Source: Hyphomicrobiales bacterium (lineage in GTDB: Bacteria > Pseudomonadota > Alphaproteobacteria > Rhizobiales > JAJFHB01). Taken from it: a stretch of 64,000 nucleotides of DNA. The stretch is from NCBI GenBank assembly GCA_021775755.1, contig JAJFHE010000036.1, positions 52,198 to 116,197 on the forward strand. The letters run 5' to 3'. The position numbers and the translations under genes are program-made. Below the pieces are notes generated by a model. It was not told where the DNA came from. It saw only the letters and a list, made by a program, of their open reading frames with translations, and ran no database searches. Positions 4,593 through 35,552 of the stretch are shown in pieces. Position 1 is the stretch's first letter, and each line of letters begins with the position of its first letter.

Positions 4593-4661
4593 CGCATCAT
4601 CACTGCTGGTTCCCGGCCACCGCACGCGATAGTGTCGGCAGACCCGGCGGAGGCGGGTGCG

Positions 4662-7434: not shown

Positions 7435-7448
7435 AGCCCGCTGAAGAC

Positions 7449-7530: not shown

Positions 7531-7620
7531 CCGGTGGAAGCTGACAAGACTGGATATAGCGCGCTCAAAGGGCGCGCACTGTGAGCGGGATCACAGTTCC
7601 CCTGATTTCAGGAAAATCTT

Positions 7621-7956: not shown

Positions 7957-8239
7957 GCTCGCTCCCCCTGTTTCCACCATAGTTTCGGCACTGTTTTGTC
8001 ACGTTGGCGCCATGAAGCGCAATGATGCTTGCCGCACTTTTCAAATTCGAGGCCGCACCGGTTGATGCGGTCCGACGTGCAACCTGATCGCCCCCATGAT
8101 ACTGATTCCTCTATCATGCGGGCCATGACACTGCGTCAGCCTCGGCGCGCATGTCATGGACGGGAACCGCTTCGTGTGGCAGGGTATCGGTTTGCAGGTG
8201 GGCGGTTGACGTTGAAACTATGTCAATCTGGAGATACCT

Positions 8240-13717: not shown

Positions 13718-15855
13718 GGCTGGCGGCGACAGCCCGCCGGGCCTCGGTGTGGGCAAGGACGGCCTCGCGGCGACACTGGCGCGGCCTTGCGCTCGGCGCC
13801 GCGGCTAATGTCATTGCCGCGGCGCTGACACTTGCCGTGCTCGATGAAATCGCGCCGCCGCCGCTTGACCGGCTGCAAGAGGTCTCCGTCACGGTCAACG
13901 ACCGAAACGGCGAGCTGTTACGCGCGTTCTCGATTGCGGACGGGCGCTGGCGGCTGCCGGTGACCCCCGGCGATGTCGATCCGGTCTACCTCGCCATGCT
14001 TCTGGCCTATGAAGACAAGCGGTTCGAGGATCATGCCGGCGTCGATCCTTTGGCACTGCTGCGCGCAGTGTGGCAGTTCGCGAGCAACGGGCGCATCGTT
14101 TCCGGCGCCTCGACGATCACCATGCAGGTCGCCCGGCTGCTTGAACCGCGCGAAGCACGCAGTCTGAGCGCGAAAGTCCGGCAGATGCTGCGAGCGCTGC
14201 AGATCGAGCGCCGGCTCGGCAAGCCCGAGATCCTCCAGGCCTATTTGACACTGGCGCCCTATGGCGGCAACATCGAGGGCGTGCGCGCCGCGGCACTCAC
14301 CTATTTCGGCAAGGAACCGGGCGCGCTGACGATCGGCGAGGCAGCACTGCTTGTCGCCCTGCCGCAGCTGCCGGAAGCCAGACGGCCGGATCGCAACCCC
14401 GATGCCGCAAAGTCGGCGCGCGACCGGGTGCTTCGGCGCATGGCGGATCTCGGTGTCATCTCCAATTTGGACGCAGATCGGGAAATGCAAAGGCCGGTGC
14501 CGAACCGCCGCCGTCCCTTACCGGCATTTGCCGCTCATGAGGCCGAACGCGCGGTGCGCTCAGCCCGCGCCGCGCCGCGCCACACTCTTTCGATTGACCG
14601 CACCTACCAGAGCGCGCTGGAAACCATGGTTCGCGAACGCCTGCATACCCTCGGCAGCCGCACTGCTGTCGCCATCCTGCTTGCAGATCACAAAACCGGG
14701 GAAGTTCTCGCACGCGTTGGCTCGGCCGATTATTTCGATGCACGGCGCTCCGGCGCCATCGACATGACCCGGGCGGTGCGCTCGCCGGGCTCCACATTGA
14801 AGCCTTTCATTTACGGCCTCGCCCTGGAGGCCGGTCTGGTGCATCCCGAAACCCTGATCGATGACCGGCCGACGAACTTCCACGGTTATCGGCCGGGCAA
14901 TTTCGATATGAGCTACCAGGGCACGGTGAGCGTTCGCGAGGCGTTGCAGCTTTCATTGAACGTACCCGCCGTAAGGTTGCTTGAAGCGGTCGGACCGATG
15001 CGTTTGATGGCGGCTTTCCGCGGTGCGGGTGTGACACCGCAGCTGCCGAATGACGAACCTGCGGGCCTCGCCATCGGACTGGGTGGGGTGGGTCTGACGC
15101 TTGAGGATCTCGTCACGCTTTACACCGGTCTGCCGCGCGAGGGCCGCACGGTTGCCCTGCGCGGCACGGCGGCTGACCGGCAGGAGATTTTCGCTGCTCC
15201 GCGCGCAACTGCAATGTTCGCGGCACCCGCGAGCTGGCATGTCGGGGATATGCTTTCAGGCACGCCGCCGCCCGATGCCGCCCTGCCGATCGGCATCGCC
15301 TACAAGACCGGAACCTCCTACGGTTACCGCGACGCCTGGGCGATCGGTTTTGACGGACACCTTGTGATGGGGGTCTGGGTCGGCCGCGCCGATGCCGCGC
15401 CGATCGCCGGCCTCACCGGACGCACGGCCGCGGCCCCTATCCTGTTTGAAGGGTTTTCGCGTTTGCCCGGCGAGCGCACGCCGCTTCCACCGCCACCTCC
15501 CGATACGCTGCACGCAACCACCGCCGACCTACCCGGCTTGCTGCAGCGCTTCGAAGCGCCGTTCAGCACGGCCGCAGCAAATGGCTCCGCGAATAGTGCG
15601 CCGCTTGCAATCATCCACCCGCCCGAGGGCGCACGCGTTGCACTTGCCGGGTCGGCGCGCACAACGCTCCGACCGCTCATTTTGAAGGCAGATGGGGGAA
15701 CGGCGCCTTACAGATGGTTCGCCAACGGCGCACCGCTTGAGACGCCGACGCGGCGGCCGAGCACAACATGGACGCCGGACACCGCCGGTTATTCCACATT
15801 CACGGTAGTAGACGCAGAAGGCCGAACGGACCGGGTCAGCATTTACATCGAGTAA
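13714..15855 (+). CDS. pbpC: Penicillin-binding protein 1C
   Basis: Transglycosylase motifs YEDKRF and GASTITMQVARL; transpeptidase SxxK (STLK), SxN (SLN) and KTG; canonical position after alpha-2-macroglobulin. Confidence 0.93.
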   Translation: MRLAATARRASVWARTASRRHWRGLALGAAANVIAAALTLAVLDEIAPPPLDRLQEVSVTVNDRNGELLRAFSIADGRWRLPVTPGDVDPVYLAMLLAYEDKRFEDHAGVDPLALLRAVWQFASNGRIVSGASTITMQVARLLEPREARSLSAKVRQMLRALQIERRLGKPEILQAYLTLAPYGGNIEGVRAAALTYFGKEPGALTIGEAALLVALPQLPEARRPDRNPDAAKSARDRVLRRMADLGVISNLDADREMQRPVPNRRRPLPAFAAHEAERAVRSARAAPRHTLSIDRTYQSALETMVRERLHTLGSRTAVAILLADHKTGEVLARVGSADYFDARRSGAIDMTRAVRSPGSTLKPFIYGLALEAGLVHPETLIDDRPTNFHGYRPGNFDMSYQGTVSVREALQLSLNVPAVRLLEAVGPMRLMAAFRGAGVTPQLPNDEPAGLAIGLGGVGLTLEDLVTLYTGLPREGRTVALRGTAADRQEIFAAPRATAMFAAPASWHVGDMLSGTPPPDAALPIGIAYKTGTSYGYRDAWAIGFDGHLVMGVWVGRADAAPIAGLTGRTAAAPILFEGFSRLPGERTPLPPPPPDTLHATTADLPGLLQRFEAPFSTAAANGSANSAPLAIIHPPEGARVALAGSARTTLRPLILKADGGTAPYRWFANGAPLETPTRRPSTTWTPDTAGYSTFTVVDAEGRTDRVSIYIE

Positions 15856-15864
15856 TTGCCAGTC

Positions 15865-16668
15865 TTACTCCGCCGCATCTGCCTTTCGGTCGGCAAGCAG
15901 CTGCTCCAGGCAGTCGTCGTCGAGCGGTTCAATGGCTGCGAAATCGCGATGCGCGATCCATTCGGCCCGTTTGAACTGGCGGATGTGATTGTCGACATGA
16001 CACAGCGACAGATAGACGATGGTGCGGTCCAGCGGCGAGATGTTCGCCGGACTTGCGTGCACGAGCAGGGACGAGAACATCAGCATTGAGCCGGCCGGCC
16101 CGGTGGGGGCCACACAGCCACCGCGGTCCGCCAGCTCTTTTACGACTTCACGGTCAAGCGTCCACAGCGGATAGCTCGTCGTTTCCAGATCGTGGCCGGC
16201 CTCGATCACGCCAAGTTTGTGGCTTTGCGGAATAAACAGCAGTGGGCCGTTCGCGGCCGTGACATCGTCGAGGAATACGGCAATGTTCATCGCACGCGGC
16301 TCGGGCATCTTGTCGTCGCGCGCCCAGGTGCCGTAGTCCTGGTGCCATTGCCAGACATCGCCATCGAAGGCCGCCTTGGCGTTGACCTTGTACTGATGCA
16401 TGTATACGGGGCCGCCCAGCGCCTGCATGACGGGGTCGATGAGACGCGGGTGCGCGCCGAGCCGGCGGAAAGCTTCATTGTAGGTGTGAGCCGCAAAGGC
16501 GGTGCGTGCCACGCCGCTACTTTCGCGCCACACCTCTTCACGGTCCATGGCGTACACGGCGCGGGCTTCATCACGCAGCAGGCCCGCTTCCTCGCGCGAA
16601 AACAGGTCTGGAAAAAACAGGTACCCTTCACGCTCGAAGGTTGCGAGATCGCTTTCACTTAGCTCCAT
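15865..16668 (-). CDS. Fe(II)/2-oxoglutarate dioxygenase, PhyH/EctD-like (proline/ectoine hydroxylase-like)
   Basis: HxD in WQWHQDYGTW, distal His in LVHASPAN, GPLLFIPQSHK; GGGAG SD before ATG 16668. Confidence 0.88.
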   Translation of the reverse strand: MELSESDLATFEREGYLFFPDLFSREEAGLLRDEARAVYAMDREEVWRESSGVARTAFAAHTYNEAFRRLGAHPRLIDPVMQALGGPVYMHQYKVNAKAAFDGDVWQWHQDYGTWARDDKMPEPRAMNIAVFLDDVTAANGPLLFIPQSHKLGVIEAGHDLETTSYPLWTLDREVVKELADRGGCVAPTGPAGSMLMFSSLLVHASPANISPLDRTIVYLSLCHVDNHIRQFKRAEWIAHRDFAAIEPLDDDCLEQLLADRKADAAE

Positions 16669-16872
16669 AACTCCCACTCCCTCATCATCTGCACGGCGGG
16701 TCGACAGTCTACCGCGACAAGGCGGCTGCGGGAAGATGCTGCGAATATACGGCGTAATCCGCTTAACTCACAATTGGTTGACTCATTGAGTTTTCCGCTC
16801 GCAATGACCTCCCCCGGTATCTTAGTTTGACAACCAGATACTGGATTTAACCGCGGCGGAGTTAACTGAAGC

Positions 16873-17547
16873 ATGCGGCCGTTGGCGAACCTGCTGCAAA
16901 TCTTTTCGCGTATTGTGCGAAAAGGGGCACTAAGTCAGGGAGCTCTGGGTGCGGAAATCGGTAAGTTCAGCATGTTGCTGGATGGCGTCGATCCAACCGC
17001 GATCCTTCCCCGAAAGCCCTCCACGATCGAGTTCGAGGCTTTGCTCGAGCCATACATTTCCGTTGCAGTGAAAAGCGGCATGGGGGAGATGGCACAGGCG
17101 GTCAAAGATGCAGCGCCCGAGCTGAACTGGTCGCGTGGTTTCGCGCCGGCGCGGTGGGACAAGGAGTTTCTTCCGCATTTTGCAAATGCCGAGATGGCCG
17201 GGCCCAGCGGACCAATCGAAAAAGACGACCTGACGATTGACTTTTCGTTCATCGCACCGGATCAGCTATTGCCTCCACATGTTCATTCCGCCGTCGAACT
17301 CAGCCTGGTTGTGGCTGGCTGGCCCACCGTGCGGATAGGCGACGGCGAAGCCAGGACGCATGCTCCAGGCTCTTTTGTTTGTCAACCGAGCAAAGTTTCG
17401 CAGACGGTGTGGAGCGGCCCGGACGGGGTATTTGCGGCCACCATGTGGCGCGGAGATTTCAGCATGCCGGCGCAACGCGTCTATCCGGCGGTGGAAACGT
17501 ACGCCGGCGAACTCCCACCCGGCGGAACCTCAACCGGCAGCAGCTGA
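16873..17547 (+). CDS. Cupin of the DMSP-lyase (DddQ/DddL-like) family, divergent
   Basis: EMAGPSGP, PPHVHSAVELSLVVAG (cupin motif 1), PGSFV..PS (motif 2) and the terminal MWRGD typical of this family. Confidence 0.6.
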   Translation: MRPLANLLQIFSRIVRKGALSQGALGAEIGKFSMLLDGVDPTAILPRKPSTIEFEALLEPYISVAVKSGMGEMAQAVKDAAPELNWSRGFAPARWDKEFLPHFANAEMAGPSGPIEKDDLTIDFSFIAPDQLLPPHVHSAVELSLVVAGWPTVRIGDGEARTHAPGSFVCQPSKVSQTVWSGPDGVFAATMWRGDFSMPAQRVYPAVETYAGELPPGGTSTGSS

Positions 17548-17553: not shown

Positions 17554-17815
17554 ATACCAAGGGCGGCAATTATTGACCCGTTTCACCGGGATGATTTTGC
17601 CCTCCGGCAAGGCGCGTACTGCGCCGCGGCACAGGTACCGTAAGCAGTACGCAACGCTGCGGGAGGGCAAAAGCACCCGGCCTGCGGTGGGCCATTCCGG
17701 CCCGCCGACCGCGTTGCGGGCCTTGTCTGATACACCGCATCGCACTGCGGCCCGCGCCTCGTCGAGCGAGCCGGAATGGCCCATGAAATGGGTCAATAAT
17801 TGCCGCCCTTGGTAT
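17554..17815. repeat. MITE/BIME-like structured element, copy 1 (32-bp terminal inverted repeats)
   Basis: ATACCAAGGGCGGCAATTATTGACCCGTTTCA (17554-17585) matches the reverse complement of 17784-17815 with 1 mismatch; TA at both ends; 108-nt core shared with the element at 31063. Confidence 0.8.
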
Positions 17816-18665
17816 CAGTCCGCTGCAATGTGCCGACCGGCATGGCATCGGCCACCCCGCGCGGTCGTGCAAGTTTCTGGTCCAACACGATCCAGTCGCC
17901 CTCGAACCCGTCTGAAGGGTCACGGCCCAGTGCCCTGATCGTGCTTTTATGCAGTTCGCGTTCTTCCTGCGAGATCAGGCGGCGGTAACGTATCGGGTGG
18001 GAGTTTACCGGCTCGACGACATAATCGAGCGCGCCGAGCGATCGGATGAATGCATCATCGTCGACATCATAGCGCGGTGCATAGACGAGCCATGGCCGCG
18101 CGCCGAGCGACGTGGCGGTCTCAAGCAGGCGAGCAAGGGCGGGCAGCAAGACGCTGAGCACGGCGCCCGCTTCATAGATAACGTGCGTGCCCTTCAGGAA
18201 CGCCCGCAGGTCTTCCCCCGCTTCCGCCTCCAGCAGATTGTCGTCAAAGCCTTTGTCGATGAGACCGCAGGCGCGGGCGTAGTTGACTGCCTGCGTTGCG
18301 ATGTCGAGGCCGGCGATGTCGAAGCGGTCTTCCCGGTACCGGCGCGAGCCGTAAAATCGCGCGTCCGCCCCGTGCAAATCCTCCGGGGCATCCGTGTCGT
18401 AATAGGAAAAGAGATCGTTCATCGTGACCGTGTGGCGCAGCATTGCGGCGACAGCGCCGAAACCGCAGGCAAAATCAAGAACGTGCAGTTTCGGTACGGA
18501 GAAGGCTTCGGCAATCGCGGCGTGATTGTCGCGCAGGAACCGTGACGTCACATCCGGCATTCTGTAGCCGGCCGGCTTGAGCGCACGATAATAGGCGCGC
18601 GGATCGGGCCGGTTGTAGATTTCATCAAAATCACGATGCGTATTGATGATAATAGTGTCGCTCAA
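17793..18665 (-). CDS. Class I SAM-dependent methyltransferase-like protein
   Basis: Motif I LHVLDFACGFG, motif II IAGLDIATQAV; N-terminal FDEIYNRPDPRAYY; TTG start. Confidence 0.6.
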   Translation of the reverse strand: MSDTIIINTHRDFDEIYNRPDPRAYYRALKPAGYRMPDVTSRFLRDNHAAIAEAFSVPKLHVLDFACGFGAVAAMLRHTVTMNDLFSYYDTDAPEDLHGADARFYGSRRYREDRFDIAGLDIATQAVNYARACGLIDKGFDDNLLEAEAGEDLRAFLKGTHVIYEAGAVLSVLLPALARLLETATSLGARPWLVYAPRYDVDDDAFIRSLGALDYVVEPVNSHPIRYRRLISQEERELHKSTIRALGRDPSDGFEGDWIVLDQKLARPRGVADAMPVGTLQRTDTKGGNY

Positions 18666-18709: not shown

Positions 18710-19945
18710 TCAAACGAGAAAGCCTGTTACCAAAAAACAGGCACAGGTTACCGCACCGACGACCGGCACCCAAGAGGGCACGGCAAACTGTGGAACCGGT
18801 CCCCCGCTTTGCGTGAACTTCAGCCGGACAAGCGCAAGATTAACCAGCGTGAAGATAACGAGCGCTACGCGCGAGGTCATTTCCGCCAGCCCTTCCAGCG
18901 GAAATCCCAGCGCCAGGACAAGCACCGCCGCAATTACGAGTGCGGTTGCAAAGAGCGGTGTACGGGTGCGCGGATCGACCGTTGAGAGAACCCGCGGCAG
19001 CGTTCCCATGGAGGACATGCCGTAGATCACCCGCGACACCATAATGACCTGAACGATCATCGTATTGAGGGTTGCGAATACGGCGATGACGGTGATCGCC
19101 ACCGGCGATGCACCGGTGACGCGGCGAAACACATCGGCGAGCGGCGCCTGGGAAGCCGCCAGATCGGCAGCGGGTAGCGACAGAACGGATACGGAAACCA
19201 CCAGCACATAAATCACTGTTGTCGCGACAAGCGTTGCAATGATGGCGATGGGCAGATCGCGTTTCGGGTTTCGCGCCTCTTCGGCAACGTTGACAAGGTC
19301 TTCAAATCCGATGAACGCGAAGAACGCGAGGAGACCGGCGGAAAATACCGAAAACCAGACCGTGAGATCGAGTGGCGGCACGAGGCTGCCGAACTGCAGG
19401 GCAATGCCGGGATTGGCGGCAAAGCCCGCAGCAATAATGACGCACAGGCCACCGATTTCAATGACCGTAAACAGCGCGGCGAGCATAACGGATTCAAGAA
19501 TTCCCCATGCGGCAACCAACCCGACCACCACAATAATCGCAGGGATCAGCAGCGTCGCCGGCAGGTCAACAAACTCGCGCAGGTAACCGGCGCACCCCAG
19601 CGCGATTGCGGAAGACGATATGGTGCCCGACGCAATGACCAGAGCGCCGGTTACAAAAGACAGGGAACTGGATCCGAACCCCTCGCGCACATAGGCCGCC
19701 TCGCCCGCGCTTACCGGAAATCGCGCCGACAACTCGCCGAAACTCAATGCCGTAAAGGCCATAACCACAGCCGACACGACAAACGACGCCGGGGCATAGA
19801 TACCGGCCCGCGCCGCCGTCGCCCCGACAAGCACGTAAATGCCGGCGCCCACCGTAACGCCGAGGCCGTAAAGCACAAGGAGCGGCAGGTTCAAAGACCG
19901 TTTGAGCGTGGCATCGGTGGCCGTCATGACAACGGGGGCCTCCAT
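18710..19945 (-). CDS. APC family amino-acid permease
   Basis: YGLGVTVGAGIY, SAGEAAYV, FAFIGFEDLVNVAEE; 11-12 TM segments. Start could be 19927. Confidence 0.92.
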   Translation of the reverse strand: MEAPVVMTATDATLKRSLNLPLLVLYGLGVTVGAGIYVLVGATAARAGIYAPASFVVSAVVMAFTALSFGELSARFPVSAGEAAYVREGFGSSSLSFVTGALVIASGTISSSAIALGCAGYLREFVDLPATLLIPAIIVVVGLVAAWGILESVMLAALFTVIEIGGLCVIIAAGFAANPGIALQFGSLVPPLDLTVWFSVFSAGLLAFFAFIGFEDLVNVAEEARNPKRDLPIAIIATLVATTVIYVLVVSVSVLSLPAADLAASQAPLADVFRRVTGASPVAITVIAVFATLNTMIVQVIMVSRVIYGMSSMGTLPRVLSTVDPRTRTPLFATALVIAAVLVLALGFPLEGLAEMTSRVALVIFTLVNLALVRLKFTQSGGPVPQFAVPSWVPVVGAVTCACFLVTGFLV

Positions 19946-20109: not shown

Positions 20110-21120
20110 TCAAGCGGTCTGCATTGCCGTCGTGCCGTAGGTCAGGCCGATGGACTTCAACCATCGCCGATACTCGACAGCGGTACGATCAGATGGCAGA
20201 TGCATTTCCGATCCCGCATCAATGGGCAGGAGCTTGGGGCGCTGGCTTTCGACTATCACCACGTCCTGCCCGATGATCGTATCAGTGAAGGAACTGACCT
20301 CTTCGGCAGTATCCAGTTCGTCGTAGTTCGACGCGAGCAGAACCCAGCCGATGCCGCGGTCCGGCGCGACGGGCGTCACCGTTAATACGATAGCTTCCGT
20401 CGCCGCAGAGCCGTCGGAGCGCTTGATTCCGAGATCCTTTTTCAACCGCGCAGTATACGGTCTCGGCACATAATACTCATACCCGACCTCCATACCCTCT
20501 ACATCGAGAGCATTGGTCGGCTTCGGCTGCCACGCCTTCACATTGGTTACGGCAACACCGTCCGGTCCGACCGTAACGTCGTAATCCATGACTTCGGTGT
20601 GCTCTTTGTCGCCGAGATAGTCAGTATGCACGAACGGAAAGTGCGAGATGTCGAGAAAGTTCTCGATGCCGCGCAAACCGCTGGTTTCGTATTGATAGCG
20701 CCCGCCAAAAAAAATCGTGTGGGTCCCTTCATCGGCTTCGGGAAAGGGCGGAACATCGTGCTTGGGCTCGCCAAGGCAGACCCAGATCAGGCCGTAAGCC
20801 TCCTTCACCTGAAAGGCGCGTGCGCGCGCCCTGGGCGTTGGCTGCTGGTTCTGGTGAGCAGGATAATGGACGCACTGCCCATCACCTTCATACTGCCAGC
20901 CGTGATAGGGACACACGAGACGGTTGTCGCAAACCTTGCCGAGTGAAAGTTTCACACCACGATGGGCGCACTTGTCTTCCCACGCGCAAAGTGCTTGCGA
21001 CGAGCGCCACAAGATGACGTCCGAGCCCAGAAGCTCGACCGGAAATAAACCACCTTCAGGGACATCGCCGCTTCGAGCGACAGCGTGCCAATCGTTCAGA
21101 ACAACCGGATCAACATGCAT
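20110..21120 (-). CDS. Rieske non-heme iron oxygenase, methylxanthine N-demethylase (NdmC-like)
   Basis: Rieske CAH...CPYH; mononuclear Fe ENFLDISHFPFVH and IIGQD; SGLRGIENFLD, TEVMDYDV and YRRWLKSIGLTYG recall Pseudomonas NdmC (from memory). Confidence 0.8.
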   Translation of the reverse strand: MHVDPVVLNDWHAVARSGDVPEGGLFPVELLGSDVILWRSSQALCAWEDKCAHRGVKLSLGKVCDNRLVCPYHGWQYEGDGQCVHYPAHQNQQPTPRARARAFQVKEAYGLIWVCLGEPKHDVPPFPEADEGTHTIFFGGRYQYETSGLRGIENFLDISHFPFVHTDYLGDKEHTEVMDYDVTVGPDGVAVTNVKAWQPKPTNALDVEGMEVGYEYYVPRPYTARLKKDLGIKRSDGSAATEAIVLTVTPVAPDRGIGWVLLASNYDELDTAEEVSSFTDTIIGQDVVIVESQRPKLLPIDAGSEMHLPSDRTAVEYRRWLKSIGLTYGTTAMQTA

Positions 21121-21196
21121 CGTACTTGCTCCAGGCTGAGGTACGGTCCCCGCCCGTGGGAAAGCTTCAGGCAGGAACCGAACGTCGCGTATTACG

Positions 21197-22279
21197 TCAT
21201 TCAGGCAAGGTTCCCTCGACGCCCTCTACGTACCAGTTCATGGAATAGAGATCGGCGTCGGGAATGACAGTTCCTGCAGCTATGCGCTCAGTGCCTGACT
21301 GGTCGCGCACTGGCCCCTGGAAGGGGTGGAATGTTCCCGCCACGATTTCAGCCTGACGGGCTTCGACCTGTGCCACCACATCCTGCGGAACCATTGGCCC
21401 CAACGGCGCGATGGCAAGCACACCCTGCGCCATGGAATCCCACATGGGCGCGTTGGTCCACGTTCCATCAATGACGCTGCCCGTCACACGGGTGTAGAAA
21501 TCGCCCCAGACCGGAATGACCGCGGTCAACTGCGAGTCCGGCCCGAACTGTGCCCGGTCGGAATGAAATCCGATAACCATTTTGCCGGCTTTTTGTGCGG
21601 CAAGGGTTGGCGCGGTCGAGTCCGTAACATGTGCGACGATATCCACACCTTGCGCAAACAGGGCATCCGACGCTTCGCGTTCACGGCCCGGGTCGTACCA
21701 GGAGTTGACTTCGATCACCTTGACTACGACGTCCGGATTCATTGCCCGTGCGCCCAGCGCAAACCCGTTTATGATCTGCAACACGGCGGGCAGCGGAAAC
21801 GACGACACATAGCCAATGGTTCCGGTTTTCGTCATCGCTCCGGCAACCATTCCGGCAAGGTATGACGGCTCATAGTAACGTAGCGAGTAGGTAGCCATGT
21901 TGTCGGCGGATTTATAGCCGTCGAGATGCATGAACGTGGCATCCGGATATAGGCCGGCCACTTCGAGCGTCTGATCCATGAACCCGAACGATGTCGTGTA
22001 AACGAGACCGTGCCCGTCCGCCGCGAGTTGCCGGATAACCCGAAGAGCGTCGGGCCCATAGGCGACATTTTCCACGATGGTTGCCGAGACCGCATCACCC
22101 AGCGCTTCTTCCATAACTCGGCGGCCTTTGTCATGTTCGGCTGTCCAGCCAGTTTCTCCCACCGGGCTGAAGTACACAAACCCGACTTTGAGAGGTTCAG
22201 CCACAGCACCGGTCGGCGCTCCGAGCAGACCGTAGGCGGCCAGCAAGGCGGCTATGCTATGCAGCAAGTATCTAAGCAT
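21197..22279 (-). CDS. BMP family (purine/nucleoside) ABC transporter substrate-binding protein
   Basis: KVGFVYFSPVGETGWT, TTSFGFMD, SWYDPGRE; signal peptide; GGAGG SD before ATG 22279. Confidence 0.93.
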   Translation of the reverse strand: MLRYLLHSIAALLAAYGLLGAPTGAVAEPLKVGFVYFSPVGETGWTAEHDKGRRVMEEALGDAVSATIVENVAYGPDALRVIRQLAADGHGLVYTTSFGFMDQTLEVAGLYPDATFMHLDGYKSADNMATYSLRYYEPSYLAGMVAGAMTKTGTIGYVSSFPLPAVLQIINGFALGARAMNPDVVVKVIEVNSWYDPGREREASDALFAQGVDIVAHVTDSTAPTLAAQKAGKMVIGFHSDRAQFGPDSQLTAVIPVWGDFYTRVTGSVIDGTWTNAPMWDSMAQGVLAIAPLGPMVPQDVVAQVEARQAEIVAGTFHPFQGPVRDQSGTERIAAGTVIPDADLYSMNWYVEGVEGTLPE

Positions 22280-22426
22280 TCTGTTTCCTCCATCACCAAT
22301 CGGCGGCGCACATGGCATTTTCCAACGCAACGCGCGCGGCCGAACCCCGCCGACATTACGGGGCACATGAACGCCCAGCGCAAGTGATGCCGCGGTTCAA
22401 TGCAGTTTGAGAAACAAATTGTGCGC

Positions 22427-23431
22427 TCAGGAAAAAGAATCGTCGTCTGTGACATTAGAAACAGCAACCGCCGAGCGGACATCACGTGGCGTTTTCCCAA
22501 AATGCCTGCGGAATGCCGTCGAAAAATGGGCCGTATTGCGAAATCCGCACTGCAGACCGACGGTTCCGATGGGAACAGCTGCAAGTTTTTGATCCTGCAA
22601 GGTGCGGTGGGCGCTGTTTAACCGGCGCTCACGTATCCAACTTCCCGGTGATGCGTTCTCACCGCGAAACAGTTCGTAGAGATATCGTTCCGATACATCG
22701 TTGGCATTGGCGATTTTCTCCACCGAAAGATCCGTATCGGACAGATGGTGTTCGATGTAATCCTTGATACGCCGTAGCCGCGCAAAGCGGACTGCGGTGG
22801 CCGCCTCCGATTGCTGGCCATGTTTGCCGTCCAGCGCAACCGCCAGGATATCTAGCATGCGGTGAGCCATCGCGGTTCGGGTGGAGTCGTCCAGACTGTC
22901 AATGTTCCGGGCCAGCGATATGAGAAAATCACAGGCAACCCTGAAAGCCGTATTGTCGATACGCAGAGCTTGTGCGCAGTAGTCCTCGGCCATTCCGACA
23001 CGCTCACGAAAAAGCTGCGCCGGTATCTTGAGCAAAAGCGCTCCGGCTTCCGCGGTGTGCAGATACTCGACCTCATCCATTGTTGAGTGCAGAGTTGCCG
23101 CTTTCCAGTCGACAACAACGTCGCGGCCGAACTGGGACATGTGAAACGTTCCCTGCGTCGCAATTGTCAGTATGTACGATTCCCGTTTTTCCCTCCCGAG
23201 CGTCCGCCGCGTTTGCCGACCCTTATAGGGATCACTCTGGATATGGCGCAGACCCAACGGGCCGAGTTCAGACGACACGACGCGAGCGTGAAAGTCAGAC
23301 CCCTTCGGCGTTGCAACCTGCATGGGGCTGCACAGACCCCACATAACCTCGGCCCACTGCTCAACGCGATGATCAGCCGGGATGCTGCCGGTATCGAGGC
23401 GAAGTGGCATGTTGATGGCTTTTTGCTCCAT
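22427..23431 (-). CDS. AraC family regulator (FeaR/NphR-like sensing domain)
   Basis: C-terminal SVEKIANANDVSERYLYELF and CGFRNTAHFSTAFRRHFGKTPRDVR. Confidence 0.9.
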   Translation of the reverse strand: MEQKAINMPLRLDTGSIPADHRVEQWAEVMWGLCSPMQVATPKGSDFHARVVSSELGPLGLRHIQSDPYKGRQTRRTLGREKRESYILTIATQGTFHMSQFGRDVVVDWKAATLHSTMDEVEYLHTAEAGALLLKIPAQLFRERVGMAEDYCAQALRIDNTAFRVACDFLISLARNIDSLDDSTRTAMAHRMLDILAVALDGKHGQQSEAATAVRFARLRRIKDYIEHHLSDTDLSVEKIANANDVSERYLYELFRGENASPGSWIRERRLNSAHRTLQDQKLAAVPIGTVGLQCGFRNTAHFSTAFRRHFGKTPRDVRSAVAVSNVTDDDSFS

Positions 23432-23505
23432 GCAAAAAGCTTAGTGCATCCGCACGGCAAAGGTAAATGGGGATGCCAGTCCGCCACGGGCGCCGCACGC
23501 GCCCG

Positions 23506-24429
23506 TCATGGCCGGAATGGCACGGCAAGGGACGCCGGTGTGTTGAGAAGTATTCTTGCCCGATCAGACGAGATGATAACCAGAACCGCAATTGTCGCGG
23601 CGTAGGGCAACATGGTGAGGAACTGCGTGGGAATTCCCAGATTGGCGCTCTGGATGTGAAACTGCAAGATTGTTACCCCGCCGAAAAGCAGCGCGCCGAA
23701 CATGATCCGCGTGGGGTTCCATGCCGCGAAAACGACAAGCGCCACGGCGATCCAGCCGCGCCCGGCCGTCATGTTTTCCACCCAGACCGGCGTGTAGTAG
23801 ACCGACAGGAAAGCGCCCGCGACCCCCGCCATTGCACCGCCGAACATGACAGCCAGATATCGAACACCCAGAACGCTGAAACCGATTGCGTGGGCCGCGT
23901 CCGGCACATCCCCTACGGCGCGCAACATCAAACCGGGACGGCTTTTGTAAAGAAACCAGCGAACGCAAAAGAACAGCACAATGGTCACGTAGGTCAGCGG
24001 TTCCAGACCAAGCAGGAAAGTTCCGAGAATTGTCACATCGCTGATGAAGGGCACCACTAACGGCCCGGAGACTTCAAGCGATACGCCCGTAAAACCCGAC
24101 CCGATATACGCGCTCACGCCAATACCGAAAATTGTCAGCGCCAGTCCTGTGGCAACTTGATTCGCCATGCAGCTTAAGGTGAGAAATGCGAACACAAGCG
24201 ACATCAACGCACCGGCGAGTGCGCCACACACAGTGCCTAACAATAAACTTCCAGATGAGGCCGCGACGGCAAACGCAACACTGGCACCAACCAGCATCAT
24301 TCCTTCGACGCCGAGATTGAGCACGCCCGAGCGCTCCGCAACCAGCTCGCCGAGGCTGGCTAGCATCAACGGCGTGGCTGCGGTCACGGTCGCAATGAGC
24401 AGTATGACGATGAAGTTGATTTCAGCCAT
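23506..24429 (-). CDS. Nucleoside/purine ABC transporter permease
   Basis: LGELVAERSGVLNLGVEGMML, AGRGWIAVALVVFAAWNP. Confidence 0.92.
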   Translation of the reverse strand: MAEINFIVILLIATVTAATPLMLASLGELVAERSGVLNLGVEGMMLVGASVAFAVAASSGSLLLGTVCGALAGALMSLVFAFLTLSCMANQVATGLALTIFGIGVSAYIGSGFTGVSLEVSGPLVVPFISDVTILGTFLLGLEPLTYVTIVLFFCVRWFLYKSRPGLMLRAVGDVPDAAHAIGFSVLGVRYLAVMFGGAMAGVAGAFLSVYYTPVWVENMTAGRGWIAVALVVFAAWNPTRIMFGALLFGGVTILQFHIQSANLGIPTQFLTMLPYAATIAVLVIISSDRARILLNTPASLAVPFRP

Positions 24430-25522
24430 TCCCATGCGGCTCCGATAGTCCAGAGGCCGTTGAGAATCCGGTCCACTTCAGTTTGTAGGAGATCAGCAAG
24501 TCCGACATCAGCAGGAAGAACAGAAGCGTGCCCTGAAAGATTCCGGTGATTGCGGACGGCACTCCCAGTGTTACTTTTGCCTGTTCGCCGCCGATGTAGA
24601 ACAGCGCCATCAGCAAACTTGCCAGCACGATACCCAGCGGGTTGAGGCGCCCGATATAGGCCACAATGATTGCGGCGAACCCGTATCCCGGCGACACGAC
24701 CTCGCGCAGTTTGCCGATGGTACCGGCCACCTCGACAACACCTGCCAGACCCGCACATGCACCTCCTATCAACAATCCCATCCAAATCATGCGGTGGCGG
24801 CCGAAGCCAGCGTAACGCGCCGCCTTGATCGCCTTACCTCCGACTTCCATCTGATACGCGAGATAACTGTGTCTGATGAACAGCCAGGCTGCGCACGCGA
24901 CAACGAGAGCGATGGGGAAACCCAAATTCAAGTGTGTCCCTGCAAGCAATCTTGGCAGGCGCGCAGCCTCATGAAGCGCGGTGGATTCGGGCCAGTTGAA
25001 CCCGGTCGGGCTTCGCCAGGGCCCATAAACCAAATAGCTGAGAAACAAACCCGCAATATACGTGAGCATCAGCGTTACGAGAATTTCATTGGCGTTGAAC
25101 CTGATGCGCAGGAACGCGGCGACAGCGGCCCAAGCCATGCCCCCCAGTGCGCCGGCGACAAACATCGCAGGCAGCACCCAAATACCGTCGAAGGCCTGAA
25201 GCTGGAGGGCCAGGCCGCCGCCGCAAATTGCGCCGGCAATGAGTTGCCCCTCGGCACCAATGTTCCAGACATTTGCGCGGAAGCCGATGGCGAGCCCGAT
25301 TGCGCAGAGCAATATGGGGGACGTTTTGAGACAAAGTTCTCCGATGCCGTAAAGATCACTCACCGGAACGATAAAGAAAACGTAGAATGCGTATGCCGGA
25401 TCATGGCCAATAAACAGGAAAAGCAAACTCCCCGCCGCCATCGCGAGCAGGGCGGAGAGGAGTGGCGCGGCGTGTTTCATGAAACGGGAAGTTTCCGCCC
25501 GGGGCTCGATTCTGAAGAGCAT
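24422..25522 (-). CDS. Nucleoside/purine ABC transporter permease
   Basis: FRANVWNIGAEGQL, NEILVTLML, PGYGFAAIIVAYIGRLNP; start chosen just after the ATPase stop. Confidence 0.92.
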   Translation of the reverse strand: MLFRIEPRAETSRFMKHAAPLLSALLAMAAGSLLFLFIGHDPAYAFYVFFIVPVSDLYGIGELCLKTSPILLCAIGLAIGFRANVWNIGAEGQLIAGAICGGGLALQLQAFDGIWVLPAMFVAGALGGMAWAAVAAFLRIRFNANEILVTLMLTYIAGLFLSYLVYGPWRSPTGFNWPESTALHEAARLPRLLAGTHLNLGFPIALVVACAAWLFIRHSYLAYQMEVGGKAIKAARYAGFGRHRMIWMGLLIGGACAGLAGVVEVAGTIGKLREVVSPGYGFAAIIVAYIGRLNPLGIVLASLLMALFYIGGEQAKVTLGVPSAITGIFQGTLLFFLLMSDLLISYKLKWTGFSTASGLSEPHGNG

Positions 25523-25526
25523 GACT

Positions 25527-27068
25527 TCAGGCTCCCGCCGCGTTCGCGGGGACCGGTTCATGCTCACCGCTCATCAAACGGCCGATTTCCGCAATGCTGG
25601 TCTCACCGACCGCACGGGCCTCGGAAATGCGCCCGTTGGCCATAACAGCAATGCGGTCGCACAGTTCGAGAAGTTCGTCGAGATCTTCTGAAATAACCAA
25701 TATGGCAACGCCGCTTGCGCGCAGTTTCAGCAAGATCTGACGAATGGACTGTGCGGCGCCCACATCCAAACCCCAAGTCGGCTGCGCGGCAACGACAACT
25801 CCTGGCGCCTGCAACAGTTCGCGGCCAACGATAAACTTCTGCAGGTTTCCGCCGGACAGAGCTTCAGCGCTTATTGCGTAAGTTGCCGGGCGCACATCGA
25901 ACTCCTCAATGCATTTGCTGGCAAACTGTCGTACCGCATCCATGCGGATCACGCCCCATCGAACAAACTTGCCGACCTGTACCGTCAGCAGACCGTTCTT
26001 GACCAGAGACATGCCGGGAACAGAGCCCTGCCCGAGCCGTTCTTCGGGAATGTACACGAGGCCAAGCCGGCGCCGGCGCGTCACGCCAAGGCGTGCAGCG
26101 GCGGTACCGTCAATGCATACGTTGCGTGCGCTGGGGCTTTGCCATTCGCCACTCACGGCTTCCAACAATTCAGCTTGTCCGTTGCCGGTGATGCCCGCGA
26201 TTCCAAGAATCTCTCCCCCAAAAACTGTCAGGTTTATGTTCTCAAGATCTACACCGTGAACCGTCTCGGCCCTGCGCGACAGCGACTCTACGATCAGGCG
26301 CTGCGCCCCACTTTCTGCGCTAGTGCCCTTCGAAAGGGAAGGCACGAGTGTCCCCAGCATGTGGTGCGCAAGGCTCGCATCTGTTTCCTGGCGCGGGTCA
26401 ACTGTCGCAACGACCTTGCCATGGCGAAGGATCGTTGCGGTGTCACACAGCTGGCGAATTTCATGGAGCTTGTGACTGATGTAGAGAATGCTGTGCCCGG
26501 CATCGGCGAGGCGTGTAAGCATCACAAAAAGTTCCTGAATGGCCTGTGGTGTGAGGACAGACGTCGGCTCATCCAAGATGAGGAGCTTTGGCTCCTGCAA
26601 CAGGCACCGGACAATTTCGACCCGCTGTCGCTCACCAACCGACAGCATACCGACGGTGGCATCCGGGTTAACCGGCAATCCGTACTCTTGCGAAAGCTCG
26701 GAAATCCGCGCTGCAAGTTCCTGCCGCCGGGTACCTTTGGGCGACAGCAGCAATATGTTTTCCAGCACGGTGAGGGCTGGAAATACAGAAAAGTGCTGGA
26801 ACACCATCCCGATACCGAGCCGACGCGCGTACGCCGGCGAGCCAACCACCTCGGGTTTTCCCTCCCACAAAATGGTACCGGCGTCGGGCCTCGCAACACC
26901 ATAAATGACTTTCATCAACGTGCTTTTTCCAGCTCCGTTCTCACCCAGAACAGCATGAATAGAGCCGGGCGCCACCGTTAGGCTTACGGCATCGTTGGCA
27001 ACCACTGTGGGGTACGACTTTGTGATTTTCCTCAGCTCTAACCGAGGTATCGATTTCGAGTTTGCCAC
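25527..27068 (-). CDS. Nucleoside/purine ABC transporter ATP-binding protein (two NBDs)
   Basis: Walker A GENGAGKST, LSVGERQRVEI, ILDEPT, second domain LSGGNLQK; probable GTG start at 27068. Confidence 0.93.
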   Translation of the reverse strand: MANSKSIPRLELRKITKSYPTVVANDAVSLTVAPGSIHAVLGENGAGKSTLMKVIYGVARPDAGTILWEGKPEVVGSPAYARRLGIGMVFQHFSVFPALTVLENILLLSPKGTRRQELAARISELSQEYGLPVNPDATVGMLSVGERQRVEIVRCLLQEPKLLILDEPTSVLTPQAIQELFVMLTRLADAGHSILYISHKLHEIRQLCDTATILRHGKVVATVDPRQETDASLAHHMLGTLVPSLSKGTSAESGAQRLIVESLSRRAETVHGVDLENINLTVFGGEILGIAGITGNGQAELLEAVSGEWQSPSARNVCIDGTAAARLGVTRRRRLGLVYIPEERLGQGSVPGMSLVKNGLLTVQVGKFVRWGVIRMDAVRQFASKCIEEFDVRPATYAISAEALSGGNLQKFIVGRELLQAPGVVVAAQPTWGLDVGAAQSIRQILLKLRASGVAILVISEDLDELLELCDRIAVMANGRISEARAVGETSIAEIGRLMSGEHEPVPANAAGA

Positions 27069-27237
27069 TACCCGATGCTCCGCTAACACCCCCACACGAC
27101 GCGGCAGACTGTGCGAAAACCTATGCCAGTACAACCGTGAAAATTCAACTTGACGCGGTATGGGCACACCGGTGCACGATCTGAAGCCCACTGTGCCAGC
27201 GTGATCCGATCCGCGGAAATACCATAAGGAATAGCCC

Positions 27238-28620
27238 ATGAACGACCAGGCGACGATGCCCAACTGGATACACGGAACCCTCATGCACGCGCCGCGGCTG
27301 GAGACGGTTGAAGTTGTGGAAAACGCCCTGATTGAGGTCGGTGGCGATGGAGAAATCAGGTCGGTCATGGCGCCGGCATCGCCGGACTATGATGCTCGGC
27401 TGAGGCAAGCAGCCGCAAGCGGCGCGTTCGTGAACCTCTCCAATGATCAGTATCTCCTGCCGGGTTTCGTTGACCTGCACATCCATGCCCCGCAATGGCC
27501 GCAGATGGGAAAGGCGCTCGATCTGCCGCTCCACGAATGGCTGCTTGAGTACACGTTTCCGCTTGAGGCCAGCTATCGCGACGTGGCGTTTGCGGAGCGC
27601 GCCTACCGCACACTCGTCGAAGCCCTGCTCGCCAATGGAACGACAACGGCGGTCTATTTCGCAACGGTGCATTTGGAGGCGTCTTTGCTGCTGGCGCAGA
27701 TCTGTCTGGAGAAAGGACAACGCGGGCTGGTCGGCAAGGTGGTGATGGACGACCCGGAGCAGTGCCCTGATTATTACCGCGACGCGTCGACGGACGATGC
27801 TCTGCGCGACACGGAACGCTTCGTGGAAGCTGTACGCGCGTTGCCCGGCAATACCGCCGCTACGGTCCGTCCAGTGGTCACGCCGCGGTTTATTCCAAGC
27901 TGCACGGATGCGGCCCTGGAAGGGCTCGGCGCCATAGCCCACGACAATGACTGCCACATCCAGACACATGTGTCGGAGAGCGACTGGGAGCACGGGTTCG
28001 TCATCGAGCGTACCGGACGCACAGATACCGATGCGCTCGACCGCTTCGGCCTTCTCACGCGGCATTCGGTTCTGGCTCACTCGAACTTCATAACCGATAC
28101 CGACATGGGTACGATCGCGCGCGCGGGCGCCGGCATCGCACACTGCCCATTGTCCAACATCTATTTCGCCAATGCGGCCTTTCCCTTGCGCGCCGCACTC
28201 GACAAAGGACTGCATGTCGGACTCGGCACGGATATCTCAGGCGGCGCGAGCCCGTCGGTTCTCGACACTTGCCGGCACGCCATTGCCTCATCGCGCGCTC
28301 TCGAAGACGGAACAGACCCGGCGGCGCCGGCAGATACGCGCGGCAGACCTGGATCGCGGGTCGGCTTCAATACCGCATTCTGGCTAGCAACCGCGGGCGG
28401 CGGCGAGGCTCTCGACCTCAAGGTCGGCAAGTTCGAACCCGGATACCGGTTCGACGCGATCATGATCGAAGCCAACAGGCCGGACAGCAATCTCGTCACA
28501 TGGGCTGACACCGATACGGGCGATGATGTCCTGCAGAAAATCGTCAACAATGCGGTGCGCCAGGATATCCGCAAGGTCTGGGTGGAAGGACGGCTTGTTG
28601 TCGACAAGGACGCAAGCTGA
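27238..28620 (+). CDS. guaD: Guanine deaminase (amidohydrolase family)
   Basis: PGFVDLHIHAPQ, NGTTTA, TPRFIPSCT, QTHVSES, GLGTDISGG. Confidence 0.9.
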   Translation: MNDQATMPNWIHGTLMHAPRLETVEVVENALIEVGGDGEIRSVMAPASPDYDARLRQAAASGAFVNLSNDQYLLPGFVDLHIHAPQWPQMGKALDLPLHEWLLEYTFPLEASYRDVAFAERAYRTLVEALLANGTTTAVYFATVHLEASLLLAQICLEKGQRGLVGKVVMDDPEQCPDYYRDASTDDALRDTERFVEAVRALPGNTAATVRPVVTPRFIPSCTDAALEGLGAIAHDNDCHIQTHVSESDWEHGFVIERTGRTDTDALDRFGLLTRHSVLAHSNFITDTDMGTIARAGAGIAHCPLSNIYFANAAFPLRAALDKGLHVGLGTDISGGASPSVLDTCRHAIASSRALEDGTDPAAPADTRGRPGSRVGFNTAFWLATAGGGEALDLKVGKFEPGYRFDAIMIEANRPDSNLVTWADTDTGDDVLQKIVNNAVRQDIRKVWVEGRLVVDKDAS

Positions 28621-29762: not shown

Positions 29763-29821
29763 GGATTTGAGGTCGCCTATCTTCCATAGTTTTCGAACAC
29801 GATAACCAGGAGAATGGCGTC

Positions 29822-30664
29822 ATGCCCTACCGGACGATACTGGTTTACTTCAGCGGCGAAGATGATCGCGATGCGCTGATTTCGGCAGCAACTCAAATCG
29901 GCGCGGCCAATTCGGCACATGTGATCGGCGTCTACATTGTGCCGCCGGTACAGATAACACCGGCAGTCGGCATACACATCCCGCCTGAAATTCTCGACCG
30001 GCAGCGCGACTCTCACCGCGATCTCGCCAAGGAGATTGAAGGCAAGTTTACAGACGCCATGAAACGCGAAGGCCTGCTTAACGAATGGCGCACGCTGGAG
30101 GCTAACGGGCCGAGCGTATCGACACTCGGCGCCCAGCACGCGCGTATGTGCGATCTCGTGATCGCCAGCCAACCTGACTACGACGACGGCACGCCCGATC
30201 AGCAGGCCCTTCCCGCCGACCTCCTGCTCGAATGCGGCCGACCCGTTCTCCTCATACCAAGGGCTGGCAAGTTCCCGAAAATCGGTGGACGGATCTTCCT
30301 GTCCTGGAACGGAGAACGCGAAGCGGCGCGTGCGGCGTTTGACGCCCTGCCGTTCCTCGAAGCGGCCGATCACGTGCGCGTCCACTGGGTCAATCCGGAA
30401 GGCGAGTATAAGGGCACGCAAGCGGTTCCCGGATCGGAACTGGCAGCAACGCTCGCCCGCCATGGCGTTAAAACGGAAGCAGGGCATTCGGTTTGCGACG
30501 GCATGTCGGTGGGCGATGAAATTCTGTCCCGCCTCGCCGATTACGGCAGTGATCTTCTTGTGATGGGTGGATACGGGCATTCTCGCTTTCGCGAAATGGT
30601 ATTTGGCGGGGCGACCCGGCACATCCTGAGGCACATGACCGTACCGGTCCTCATGTCCCACTAA
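29822..30664 (+). CDS. Universal stress protein (tandem USP domains)
   Basis: MPYRTILV..., ECGRPVLLIP, DLLVMGGYGHSRFREMVFGGATRHILRHMTVPVLMSH. Confidence 0.95.
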   Translation: MPYRTILVYFSGEDDRDALISAATQIGAANSAHVIGVYIVPPVQITPAVGIHIPPEILDRQRDSHRDLAKEIEGKFTDAMKREGLLNEWRTLEANGPSVSTLGAQHARMCDLVIASQPDYDDGTPDQQALPADLLLECGRPVLLIPRAGKFPKIGGRIFLSWNGEREAARAAFDALPFLEAADHVRVHWVNPEGEYKGTQAVPGSELAATLARHGVKTEAGHSVCDGMSVGDEILSRLADYGSDLLVMGGYGHSRFREMVFGGATRHILRHMTVPVLMSH

Positions 30665-30697
30665 CGCATCACCGCCTGTACGAAGGAGACTCAGATA

Positions 30698-31066
30698 ATG
30701 AAACAGGTGCGCCTTGAGCTGGCCCGTGACAGCGATTTTCCCAATGGCAGTACACTGCACGGCTATGAATTTACCGCACCGCTCAACGCGGAAGGACATA
30801 TCGATCCGGAAGCCTGGCACAAGGACCGGGACCATTGCCGGGTCAAACGGTTCTGGGCCGGCGAGCCGGACGAAATCGGTCATGTGATCCGCAAGCCCGG
30901 CGGATCGTGGGCGTTTCACTACGATATTGACGGCGATGAGGACGACGACGAGTCGGGCTACCGATTCGGCCTTCACTGTTTTGTCCCCGGAGAGTACGTA
31001 TCGATCCGTGAACATGACGGCGAGATGCGGACGTTCCGGGTCGTTCAGGTTCGCGAGATCGCCTAA
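30698..31066 (+). CDS. Conserved hypothetical protein
   Basis: GAAGGAG SD, host-like codon usage, 122 aa with aromatic/acidic motifs (GYEFTAPL, WAFHYD, PGEYVSIRE); no function recognised. Confidence 0.8.
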   Translation: MKQVRLELARDSDFPNGSTLHGYEFTAPLNAEGHIDPEAWHKDRDHCRVKRFWAGEPDEIGHVIRKPGGSWAFHYDIDGDEDDDESGYRFGLHCFVPGEYVSIREHDGEMRTFRVVQVREIA

Positions 31067-34823: not shown

Positions 34824-34857
34824 ATTGCAGCACCCACCAGACAACAGGAGATCTGGA

Positions 34858-35493: not shown

Positions 35494-35552
35494 GCCCTCA
35501 CCATCAACGCGGAGTGGCGCCAAGCCACTCCGCCGCAAGAAGGACTGAGAAA

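Follow-up and report, generated by a model that had tools for sequence, protein, structure and literature searches.

A conserved cluster of a purine-base importer, a self-contained Rieske oxygenase and a guanine deaminase as a candidate module for methylated-purine salvage

Methylated bases such as 7-methylguanine and the N2-methylguanines are shed continuously from tRNA, rRNA, mRNA caps and alkylated DNA. The bacterial reuse of modified bases is, to our knowledge, largely unknown, and an enzyme dedicated to it, NdmH, entered the literature for the first time in 2026. Rieske purine N-demethylases, HpxD and purine-binding proteins of the BMP family are already known, and homologs of NdmCDE with unassigned function were noted in 2013. 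Here a gene cluster uniting an importer, an oxygenase and a deaminase related to these systems was analyzed at positions 20110 to 28620 of a 64,000-nucleotide stretch of DNA from a Hyphomicrobiales bacterium (contig JAJFHE010000036.1, positions 52,198 to 116,197 of the forward strand; hereafter the window, with related loci designated by L numbers). In Pseudomonas putida CBB5, NdmC is an oxygenase without a Rieske cluster that demethylates 7-methylxanthine and needs both NdmD, a reductase that bears an additional Rieske cluster, and NdmE, a protein resembling glutathione S-transferases (GST) (PMC4408171). The enzyme poNdmH hydrolyzes N2,N2-dimethylguanine to xanthine, and canonical guanine deaminases (GuaD) remove only -NH2 (PMC13054789). 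Among binding proteins, AtzT (guanine Kd 110 nM) and 3s99, solved with adenine, both bind free purine bases, and AtzT also binds hydroxyatrazine and ammeline (PMC6834077).

An earlier reading made from the DNA letters alone (hereafter the sequence-only reading) had described seven genes with a divergent guaD, and all seven were found at the coordinates and on the strands it gave. The minus strand encodes, in order of transcription, the ATPase of an ABC importer with two ABC_tran cassettes (25527 to ~27095), its permeases 1 (24422-25522) and 2 (23506-24435), an AraC-family regulator (22427-23431), a periplasmic BMP-family binding protein (21197-22279) and an oxygenase of 336 amino acids with Rieske and VanA_C domains (20110-21120); the gene of the guanine deaminase is on the plus strand (27238-28620), divergent from the importer operon. 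Judged from sequence comparisons, this module would import a methylated purine base and remove the methyl group by oxidative N-demethylation, coupled to deamination, an interpretation that we prefer to its rivals and regard as an evenly balanced call.

The oxygenase was assigned by Pfam, invariant alignment columns, BLASTP, a phylogenetic tree and a structure model. It carries the Rieske ligands C51, H53, C70 and H73 and the iron ligands H160, H165 and D286, which are invariant across 30 homologs and aligned with those of SxtT and GxtA; the Pfam Rieske domain scores 80 bits. With CxH...CxxH ligands and a 2-His-1-carboxylate iron site it is of the one-subunit VanA_C type, and the motifs quoted for it in the sequence-only reading are present and lie in columns invariant across the same homologs. 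Its AlphaFold2 (AF2) model (predicted local distance difference test, pLDDT, 86.7; predicted template modeling score, pTM, 0.87) has a predicted fold closest to GxtA and SxtT (template modeling score, TM, 0.87), followed by NdmA and NdmB (0.76-0.78). The same ranking was obtained for sequence matches to solved structures (SxtT/GxtA E 6e-69, NdmA 3e-35, NdmB 6e-32).

Since there was no solved structure for NdmC, annotated references were sought by tblastn against plasmids. The reference ndm cluster was that of the P. putida plasmid pTmex-577K (L087), whose NdmA matches PDB 6ick with 765 bits and whose NdmB matches 6icl with 785 bits, and in which a 284-residue Rieske-less oxygenase is followed by a 588-residue Rieske-reductase and a GST, the arrangement of NdmCDE. 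The reference HpxD was taken from Pantoea dispersa (L089), where hpxD is annotated together with its VanB reductase. Using the catalytic domain of the window oxygenase (residues 96-336) as BLASTP query, identity was 39.8% to a rhizobial Rieske-less oxygenase (150 bits), 32% to GxtA and SxtT (139-141 bits), 35.8% to the NdmC ortholog (135 bits), 30.7% to HpxD (100 bits) and 24-25% to NdmA and NdmB (63-69 bits).

For the phylogenetic analysis a tree of 61 proteins was inferred in IQ-TREE, with support given as bootstrap/Shimodaira-Hasegawa-like approximate likelihood ratio test (SH-aLRT) values. The window oxygenase and its ten closest relatives form a clade of 11 rows (100/99), hereafter the query clade, and this clade is sister to a group of two full-length gammaproteobacterial proteins (L051/L080) and six NdmC-type proteins, among them the P. 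putida NdmC ortholog (19-row node, 100/98). The six NdmC-type proteins form a clade of their own (100/100) that leaves the window oxygenase outside, as a sister lineage and not a member. SxtT and GxtA nest among cyanobacterial homologs elsewhere in the tree, and NdmA, NdmB and HpxD fall in a distant clade. In approximately unbiased (AU) tests, grouping the query clade with HpxD was rejected (p 0.003, at a cost of 22 log-likelihood units), as was an NdmA/B-like placement (p 0.008; catalytic-domain identity 24-25%), and grouping with SxtT/GxtA was marginally rejected (p 0.037). A search for residues common only to the query clade and the NdmC-type proteins was uninformative, the active-site region being conserved family-wide.

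On the evidence of this tree and alignment, the oxygenase is NdmC-like by descent yet not an NdmC-type enzyme, because it has kept the four Rieske ligands and the iron triad and is accompanied by neither NdmD nor an adjacent NdmE. The label NdmC-like in the sequence-only reading thus holds for ancestry (the sister position at 100/98 and the 35.8% catalytic-domain identity) and fails for enzyme type, the window protein having a Rieske cluster of its own; the prospect that the enzyme would group away from all Ndm enzymes was not borne out, although it is far from NdmA and NdmB. The sister lineage is in turn tied by sequence to methylated guanines through a biochemically characterized enzyme type, because the amidohydrolases of two rhizobial operons belonging to it (L088 and L096) carry 11 of the 11 published poNdmH residues at identical numbering. 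These residues are Q74, W85, W93, Y98, Y133, N165, C213, Q214, N217, E243 and D326 (PMC13054789).

The assignment of the importer to purines, also made in the sequence-only reading, agrees with profile and structure-library matches of the binding protein, which is of the purine-base type and closest to AtzT (6pi5, E 5e-106) and Brucella 3s99 (E 8e-102). Since this subfamily is one for free bases, the importer probably takes up a free base rather than a nucleoside. The ligand residues of AtzT are Y45, S97, F98, E165, N169, W194, N218 and N220 (PMC6834077). At these positions the window protein and all Rieske-linked orthologs read W-S-F-A-I-W-V-D, and 3s99 reads W-S-F-E-G-W-H-D. The aromatic sandwich and the contacts of Ser97, Phe98 and Asp220 are kept, and Ala, Ile and Val stand in place of Glu165, Gly/Asn169 and His/Asn218; the two hydrogen-bond partners of plain guanine or adenine at 165 and 218 are thereby lost. 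In AtzT, the exocyclic amine of guanine is contacted by Asn218, a residue with which the N-isopropyl group of hydroxyatrazine clashes (PMC6834077). For this reason positions 218 and 165 would face the N1/N2 edge of the ligand, as deduced from the published description of AtzT and not from its coordinates; Val, Ala and Ile at 218, 165 and 169 would then remove hydrogen-bond partners and make that edge hydrophobic.

In a database search the A-I-V signature was found in the window protein and the 24 closest clusters (at least 67% identical; two of them incomplete at one site, one with a gap at 218), and E-G-H in the next 95 clusters (49-56% identical; one with F for H). Four genomic contexts were sampled for the contrast between the two signatures. 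Both contexts with E-G-H are without a Rieske gene: L103 encodes XdhA-XdhB-XdhC and a GuaD of the typical bacterial kind, and L104 a GuaD alone. Both contexts with A-I-V (L105 and L106) have a Rieske gene and a GuaD of the eukaryote-like subtype, the pocket switch thus tracking the presence of the oxygenase. The full order in L103 (ENA ERZ26222911 contig, 1-11487) is amidohydrolase, XdhA, XdhB, XdhC, ABC ATPase, two permeases, E-G-H binding protein and GuaD, an ordinary purine module. The Rieske-linked binding proteins of Chloroflexota (L044, L062, L072) and of Leptolyngbya have A/V, M and C and so lack Glu165, at ~25% identity, where the alignment is less certain.

The linkage of GuaD, ABC importer, binding protein and Rieske oxygenase, whose conservation the sequence-only reading had made a point on which it could fail, was found in seven loci besides the window. 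The order divergent GuaD, ATPase, two permeases, (AraC), BMP, Rieske is shared by L081, L097, L098, L002, L100, L105 and L106; L083 has the same cluster lacking only GuaD, and L099 is a different context. These orthologous loci, whose oxygenases are 54-75% identical, were found in metagenome contigs and contigs of metagenome-assembled genomes (MAGs) and belong to uncultured Alpha- and Gammaproteobacteria, several of them out of marine samples. The oxygenase gene trails the binding-protein gene by ~20-200 nt in every one. The AraC gene keeps its position in L081, L083, L097, L001 and L106 and is missing from L098, L002, L100 and L105, and a GST gene stands beside GuaD in L106 (33% identical to NdmE). 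The module of L098 (1-1144, 14633-15937) and L105 (11404-14160) is flanked by a second Rieske oxygenase (Ring_hydroxyl_A type) and a sulfite-oxidase-family molybdoenzyme.

More distant relatives of the oxygenase (43-50% identical) adjoin BMP-type ABC importers outside the Proteobacteria as well, in at least eight Chloroflexota loci and on the Leptolyngbya plasmid pLBX, where binding protein, ATPase, two permeases and Rieske gene form one block. The NdmC-type relatives of Sinorhizobium meliloti, Rhizobium leguminosarum and Agrobacterium tumefaciens likewise adjoin BMP importers. Neighbor clustering over 80 loci of the broad family revealed no conserved partner beyond the BMP ABC importer and, in archaea, an APC permease. 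Purine genes recur with the oxygenase family, which we count in favor of methylated-purine salvage. A gammaproteobacterial MAG (L080, 8921-15613) encodes a tandem pair of full-length Rieske oxygenases, of which one falls in the sister lineage of the NdmC-type proteins; genes for an MFS transporter, a protein of the adenosine-deaminase family and a TonB-dependent receptor come next, and this locus may be an adenine-side counterpart of the module. In Chloroflexota CFX15 (L062, 5244-14875) the genes after those for binding protein, ABC importer and Rieske oxygenase encode an equivalog of 8-oxoguanine deaminase (602 bits, cut-off 532), an MTHFR fusion protein and a pterin-binding protein resembling MtrH. 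This locus also brings the oxygenase family together with folate and C1 genes. A homolog on the megaplasmid of Mycetohabitans endofungorum (L084, 6373-13917; 42% identical) stands beside an HpaB-like hydroxylase, a diaminobutyrate transaminase-like protein, a SidA/IucD N-monooxygenase and a tautomerase, a run that looks like a small-molecule biosynthetic cluster and not purine catabolism. The literature search returned nothing linking Rieske with 7-methylguanine and demethylase, and none of the works that it returned on Rieske and guanine deaminase concerns such a cluster.

The deaminase, which belongs to the amidohydrolase superfamily, passes the equivalog cut-off of TIGR02967 (414 bits, cut-off 375) and so bears out its earlier naming as GuaD. 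On the bacterial subfamily model PRK09228 it scores 236 bits, below the cut-off of 351, and its best solved match is human GDA (2uz9, E 4.5e-76); it is of the eukaryote-like subtype. Orthologs 59-64% identical to each other occupy the same position in L081, L097, L098, L100, L105 and L106. Those linked to A-I-V binding proteins (L105, L106) score ~400-410 bits on TIGR02967 and ~235 bits, below cut-off, on PRK09228, and the GuaD of L103 scores 677 bits on PRK09228. An NdmH-like identity of the window amidohydrolase was rejected: there is no CQxxN motif, and no NdmH-specific residue stands at the poNdmH positions, compared by numbering and unaligned.

We propose that the BMP-type binding protein would hand a modified purine base to the ABC importer, and that in the cytoplasm the self-contained Rieske monooxygenase would hydroxylate the N-methyl group, the methyl presumably leaving as formaldehyde. 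The electrons would have to come out of a general, housekeeping ferredoxin or reductase, because none is encoded nearby. The divergent deaminase would strip the 2-amino group, giving xanthine and ammonia, and the embedded AraC protein would probably turn the operon on in response to the substrate. Two orders of the steps can be envisaged. Demethylation to guanine followed by deamination would suit 1- or N2-methylguanines and fits the need of the deaminase for a free NH2 as well as the pocket changes at the N1/N2 edge. Deamination followed by demethylation (7-methylguanine to 7-methylxanthine to xanthine), the order put forward in the sequence-only reading, would fit the precedent of NdmC. Substrate class, formaldehyde release and step order are all inferred in this scheme, the pocket changes pointing to the N1/N2 edge rather than to N7.

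Several observations weigh against oxidative demethylation by this module. No reductase and no ferredoxin, and likewise no purine-catabolic gene, is among the ORFs (open reading frames) scanned between 15.8 and 36.2 kb, where the three ORFs at 28.7-31.3 kb match HSP20 only or have no Pfam match; neither a reductase nor a ferredoxin is encoded in the orthologous loci L081, L083, L097, L098, L100, L105 and L106. There is no GST adjacent to the window oxygenase, and in none of the proteobacterial loci do formaldehyde-detoxification or C1 genes adjoin the module. Of 68 residues invariant in the catalytic domain of the query clade, 45 recur in the NdmC-type proteins and 50 in the cyanobacterial/Chloroflexota clade. 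The N-demethylases NdmA and NdmB and the ring hydroxylase HpxD stand together in one other clade of the superfamily, so that position in the tree does not fix the chemistry of the window oxygenase. The placing of Glu165 at the N1/N2 edge depends on the wording of the AtzT study. The deaminase has kept every residue that human GDA uses for zinc binding, catalysis and guanine contact (HIH, Q, TPRF, HxSE, AH, GTD), and deaminases of the same subtype (~60% identical) stand alone, convergent with yggX (Iron_traffic) and mutY, on two large contigs (L101, 10001-12816; L102, 10001-12966), so that the window enzyme may be the ordinary guanine deaminase of the cell. Finally, the layout of the module matches the L103 module linked to xanthine dehydrogenase (XDH), with a Rieske gene in the place of XDH, and fits a hydroxylase equally well.

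The strongest rival, which we consider improbable but worth taking seriously, builds on this last point: the oxygenase would be a purine ring hydroxylase independent of the molybdenum cofactor that replaces XDH, with guanine or hypoxanthine imported, guanine deaminated to xanthine by GuaD, and xanthine or hypoxanthine oxidized to urate by the Rieske enzyme; in a variant, guanine would be oxidized to 8-oxoguanine and then deaminated. HpxDE plays such a role in Klebsiella. The gene-for-gene mirror of XdhABC, ABC, BMP and GuaD in L103 favors this reading, and HpxD, according to PGAP a xanthine hydroxylase independent of the molybdenum cofactor, is a member of this superfamily at 32% identity. However, the tree rejects a common clade with HpxD and gives a demethylase as the nearest characterized relative, and the window lacks the adjacent HpxE/VanB-type reductase that is present in L089, L085 and L091. 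The 8-oxoguanine-deaminase equivalog beside the Rieske gene in L062 also speaks for this rival; against it, genes of urate catabolism occur in none of about ten loci. As for the pocket, the loss of Glu165 could suit acidic xanthine and a filled N2 pocket could suit hypoxanthine, but Ala, Ile and Val are ill-suited to the polar 2-oxo/N1-H/N3-H edge of xanthine. The molybdoenzyme genes near the module in L098 and L105 further imply that these organisms make the cofactor that such a hydroxylase would dispense with.

We give a lower probability still, and a low one, to another planar, purine-like nitrogen heterocycle as the substrate (an N6-alkyladenine or cytokinin, a pterin, an aminotriazine such as ammeline, or a guanidinium alkaloid), which the oxygenase would hydroxylate or dealkylate with GuaD acting promiscuously. 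The closest solved homologs leave room for it: AtzT takes hydroxyatrazine and ammeline besides guanine, and SxtT and GxtA hydroxylate a guanidinium alkaloid. Family neighbors are also varied, including a hydantoinase in L099 and the natural-product-like genes in Mycetohabitans. Yet a guanine-deaminase equivalog is linked to the oxygenase across its clade, guanine- and adenosine-type deaminases recur with related oxygenases, the sister operons carry a hydrolase of the bona fide dimethylguanine type, and the binding protein has kept the purine sandwich with Ser97, Phe98 and Asp220. That importer and GuaD form an ordinary unit for guanine uptake and deamination with the oxygenase as an unrelated neighbor seems to us very improbable: direct evidence of co-transcription is missing and the promoter and terminator scans are uninformative, but the oxygenase follows the binding-protein gene at ~20-200 nt in every orthologous locus over 54-75% identity, the pairing of BMP ABC importer and Rieske gene recurs in Chloroflexota and cyanobacteria, and the binding-protein pocket signature tracks the presence of the oxygenase.

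Gene starts within the cluster were placed with the ORF list, profile matches and start-codon scans. The binding protein starts at ATG 22279, with GGAGG ahead of it and a signal peptide encoded, the longer ORF being over-extended. The 613-residue ORF of the ATPase (Pfam and NCBIfam matches) is likewise over-extended, its homologs having 509-531 residues, and its likely start is GTG 27095 or 27089. Permease 1 starts at ATG 25522, 4 nt past the stop of the ATPase gene, and overlaps permease 2 by 14 nt (both BPD_transp_2). The regulator inside the operon matches AraC_binding_2 and HTH_18 and is FeaR-like. Distances between the minus-strand genes range from this 14-nt overlap up to 147 nt, and the divergent guaD/ATPase intergenic region spans ~142 nt. 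Promoter- and terminator-like sites were no more numerous than in shuffled sequence, and the only inverted repeat found in the intergenic regions is a 13-nt palindrome that overlaps the start codon of the AraC gene. Rfam families including the xanthine and guanine riboswitches gave no match in the window at the gathering threshold or around the cluster at E-values up to 5.

Downstream of the oxygenase, at a distance of 164 nt, lies a gene that the sequence-only reading had not listed with the cluster, for an APC-family permease (18710-19945, minus strand; Pfam AA_permease_2). It adjoins the oxygenase gene also in L081 and is absent in L083, L097, L098, L105 and L106; it is possibly an accessory member outside the conserved core. 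In archaeal homologs (Nitrososphaerota and Bathyarchaeia; L031, L045, L046, L053, L067, L074) a distant APC permease of 536 residues is encoded directly upstream of the Rieske gene, making this a second transporter type that recurs with the oxygenase family. A GST of ~212 residues is encoded ~13.7 kb from the oxygenase (34855-35493, plus strand, within the ORF 34456-35493, its true start being M134 of that ORF), between a TetR gene (33499-34083) and a PNPOx-like flavoprotein gene (35514-36167). It is 41% identical to the P. putida NdmE ortholog (147 bits) and 40.5% to the rhizobial partner GST, and reaches only 100 bits with the best solved GST. Two minus-strand ORFs are without Pfam match (17793-18665, 290 residues; 29777-31015, 412 residues), the former kept beside the APC permease in L081. 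In the region 8240-17547 the genes for an alpha-2-macroglobulin (1825 residues), PBP1C, a PhyH dioxygenase and a DMSP-lyase-like cupin are all syntenic with L081, a marine metagenome contig, which suggests a marine proteobacterium.

We found no description of the unsplit sister lineage of NdmC, of its fixed partnership with a BMP importer and GuaD, or of the A-I-V subfamily of binding proteins. The cluster is compact, with a single binding protein, a single self-contained oxygenase and a single deaminase, and the three-residue pocket signature (A-I-V versus E-G-H) sets it apart from ordinary purine importers in sequence data. If the module demethylates, it would explain the origin of the split enzyme NdmC, supply biocatalysis with a single-chain N-demethylase and extend the routes of organic-nitrogen turnover in the sea and in soil; if it hydroxylates the purine ring, it would be a second, independent Rieske replacement of XDH. 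More tentatively, and with somewhat less than even confidence, we propose that the oxygenase is an unsplit, ancestral-type NdmC which, together with a methylpurine-specific subfamily of binding proteins, would form the core of a widespread pathway that imports the methylguanines of RNA and DNA turnover (1-, N2-, N2,N2- or 7-), demethylates them oxidatively and delivers guanine or xanthine to central metabolism, caffeine degradation by NdmCDE and the rhizobial NdmH operons then being specialized branches of this older recycling of nucleobases.

Compared with known systems, NdmCDE of P. putida CBB5 is the closest characterized relative on the tree and shares the purine substrate class; it differs in that the window oxygenase has an intact Rieske domain, comes without an NdmD-type reductase or an adjacent GST, and stands outside the NdmC-type clade. 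Like the window oxygenase, the NdmC-type relatives of S. meliloti, Rhizobium and Agrobacterium have BMP-type ABC importers linked to them. The rhizobial split operon (L088, L096), which encodes a small Rieske protein, a Rieske-less oxygenase, a GST, an NdmH-type hydrolase and a BMP ABC importer, follows the logic of the window cluster, combining an importer of the purine type with an amidohydrolase of the guanine type and an NdmC-lineage oxygenase; however, its oxygenase is split and GST-dependent, its hydrolase is 25% identical to the window GuaD, and its binding protein keeps Glu165 and has Ala at 218. SxtT and GxtA (PDB 6wn3, 6wnc) are the best solved matches (35% identity) with the same one-chain Rieske and VanA_C architecture of ~330 residues, but hydroxylate carbons of a tricyclic guanidinium alkaloid and belong to a biosynthetic cluster, not to a catabolic importer operon. 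HpxDE of Klebsiella and Pantoea (L089) resembles the window system as a Rieske/VanA_C oxygenase acting on a purine and linked to purine catabolism, whereas HpxD, 32% identical, falls in the NdmA/B clade and is always adjoined by the VanB-type reductase HpxE, absent at the window. AtzT, 3s99 and the XDH-linked importer of L103 share with the window the binding-protein subfamily, the aromatic sandwich with Ser97, Phe98 and Asp220, and the importer architecture, and they carry E, G/N and H/N at positions 165, 169 and 218 where the window has A, I and V; in L103, moreover, a xanthine dehydrogenase stands against the Rieske oxygenase of the window and the GuaD is of another subtype.

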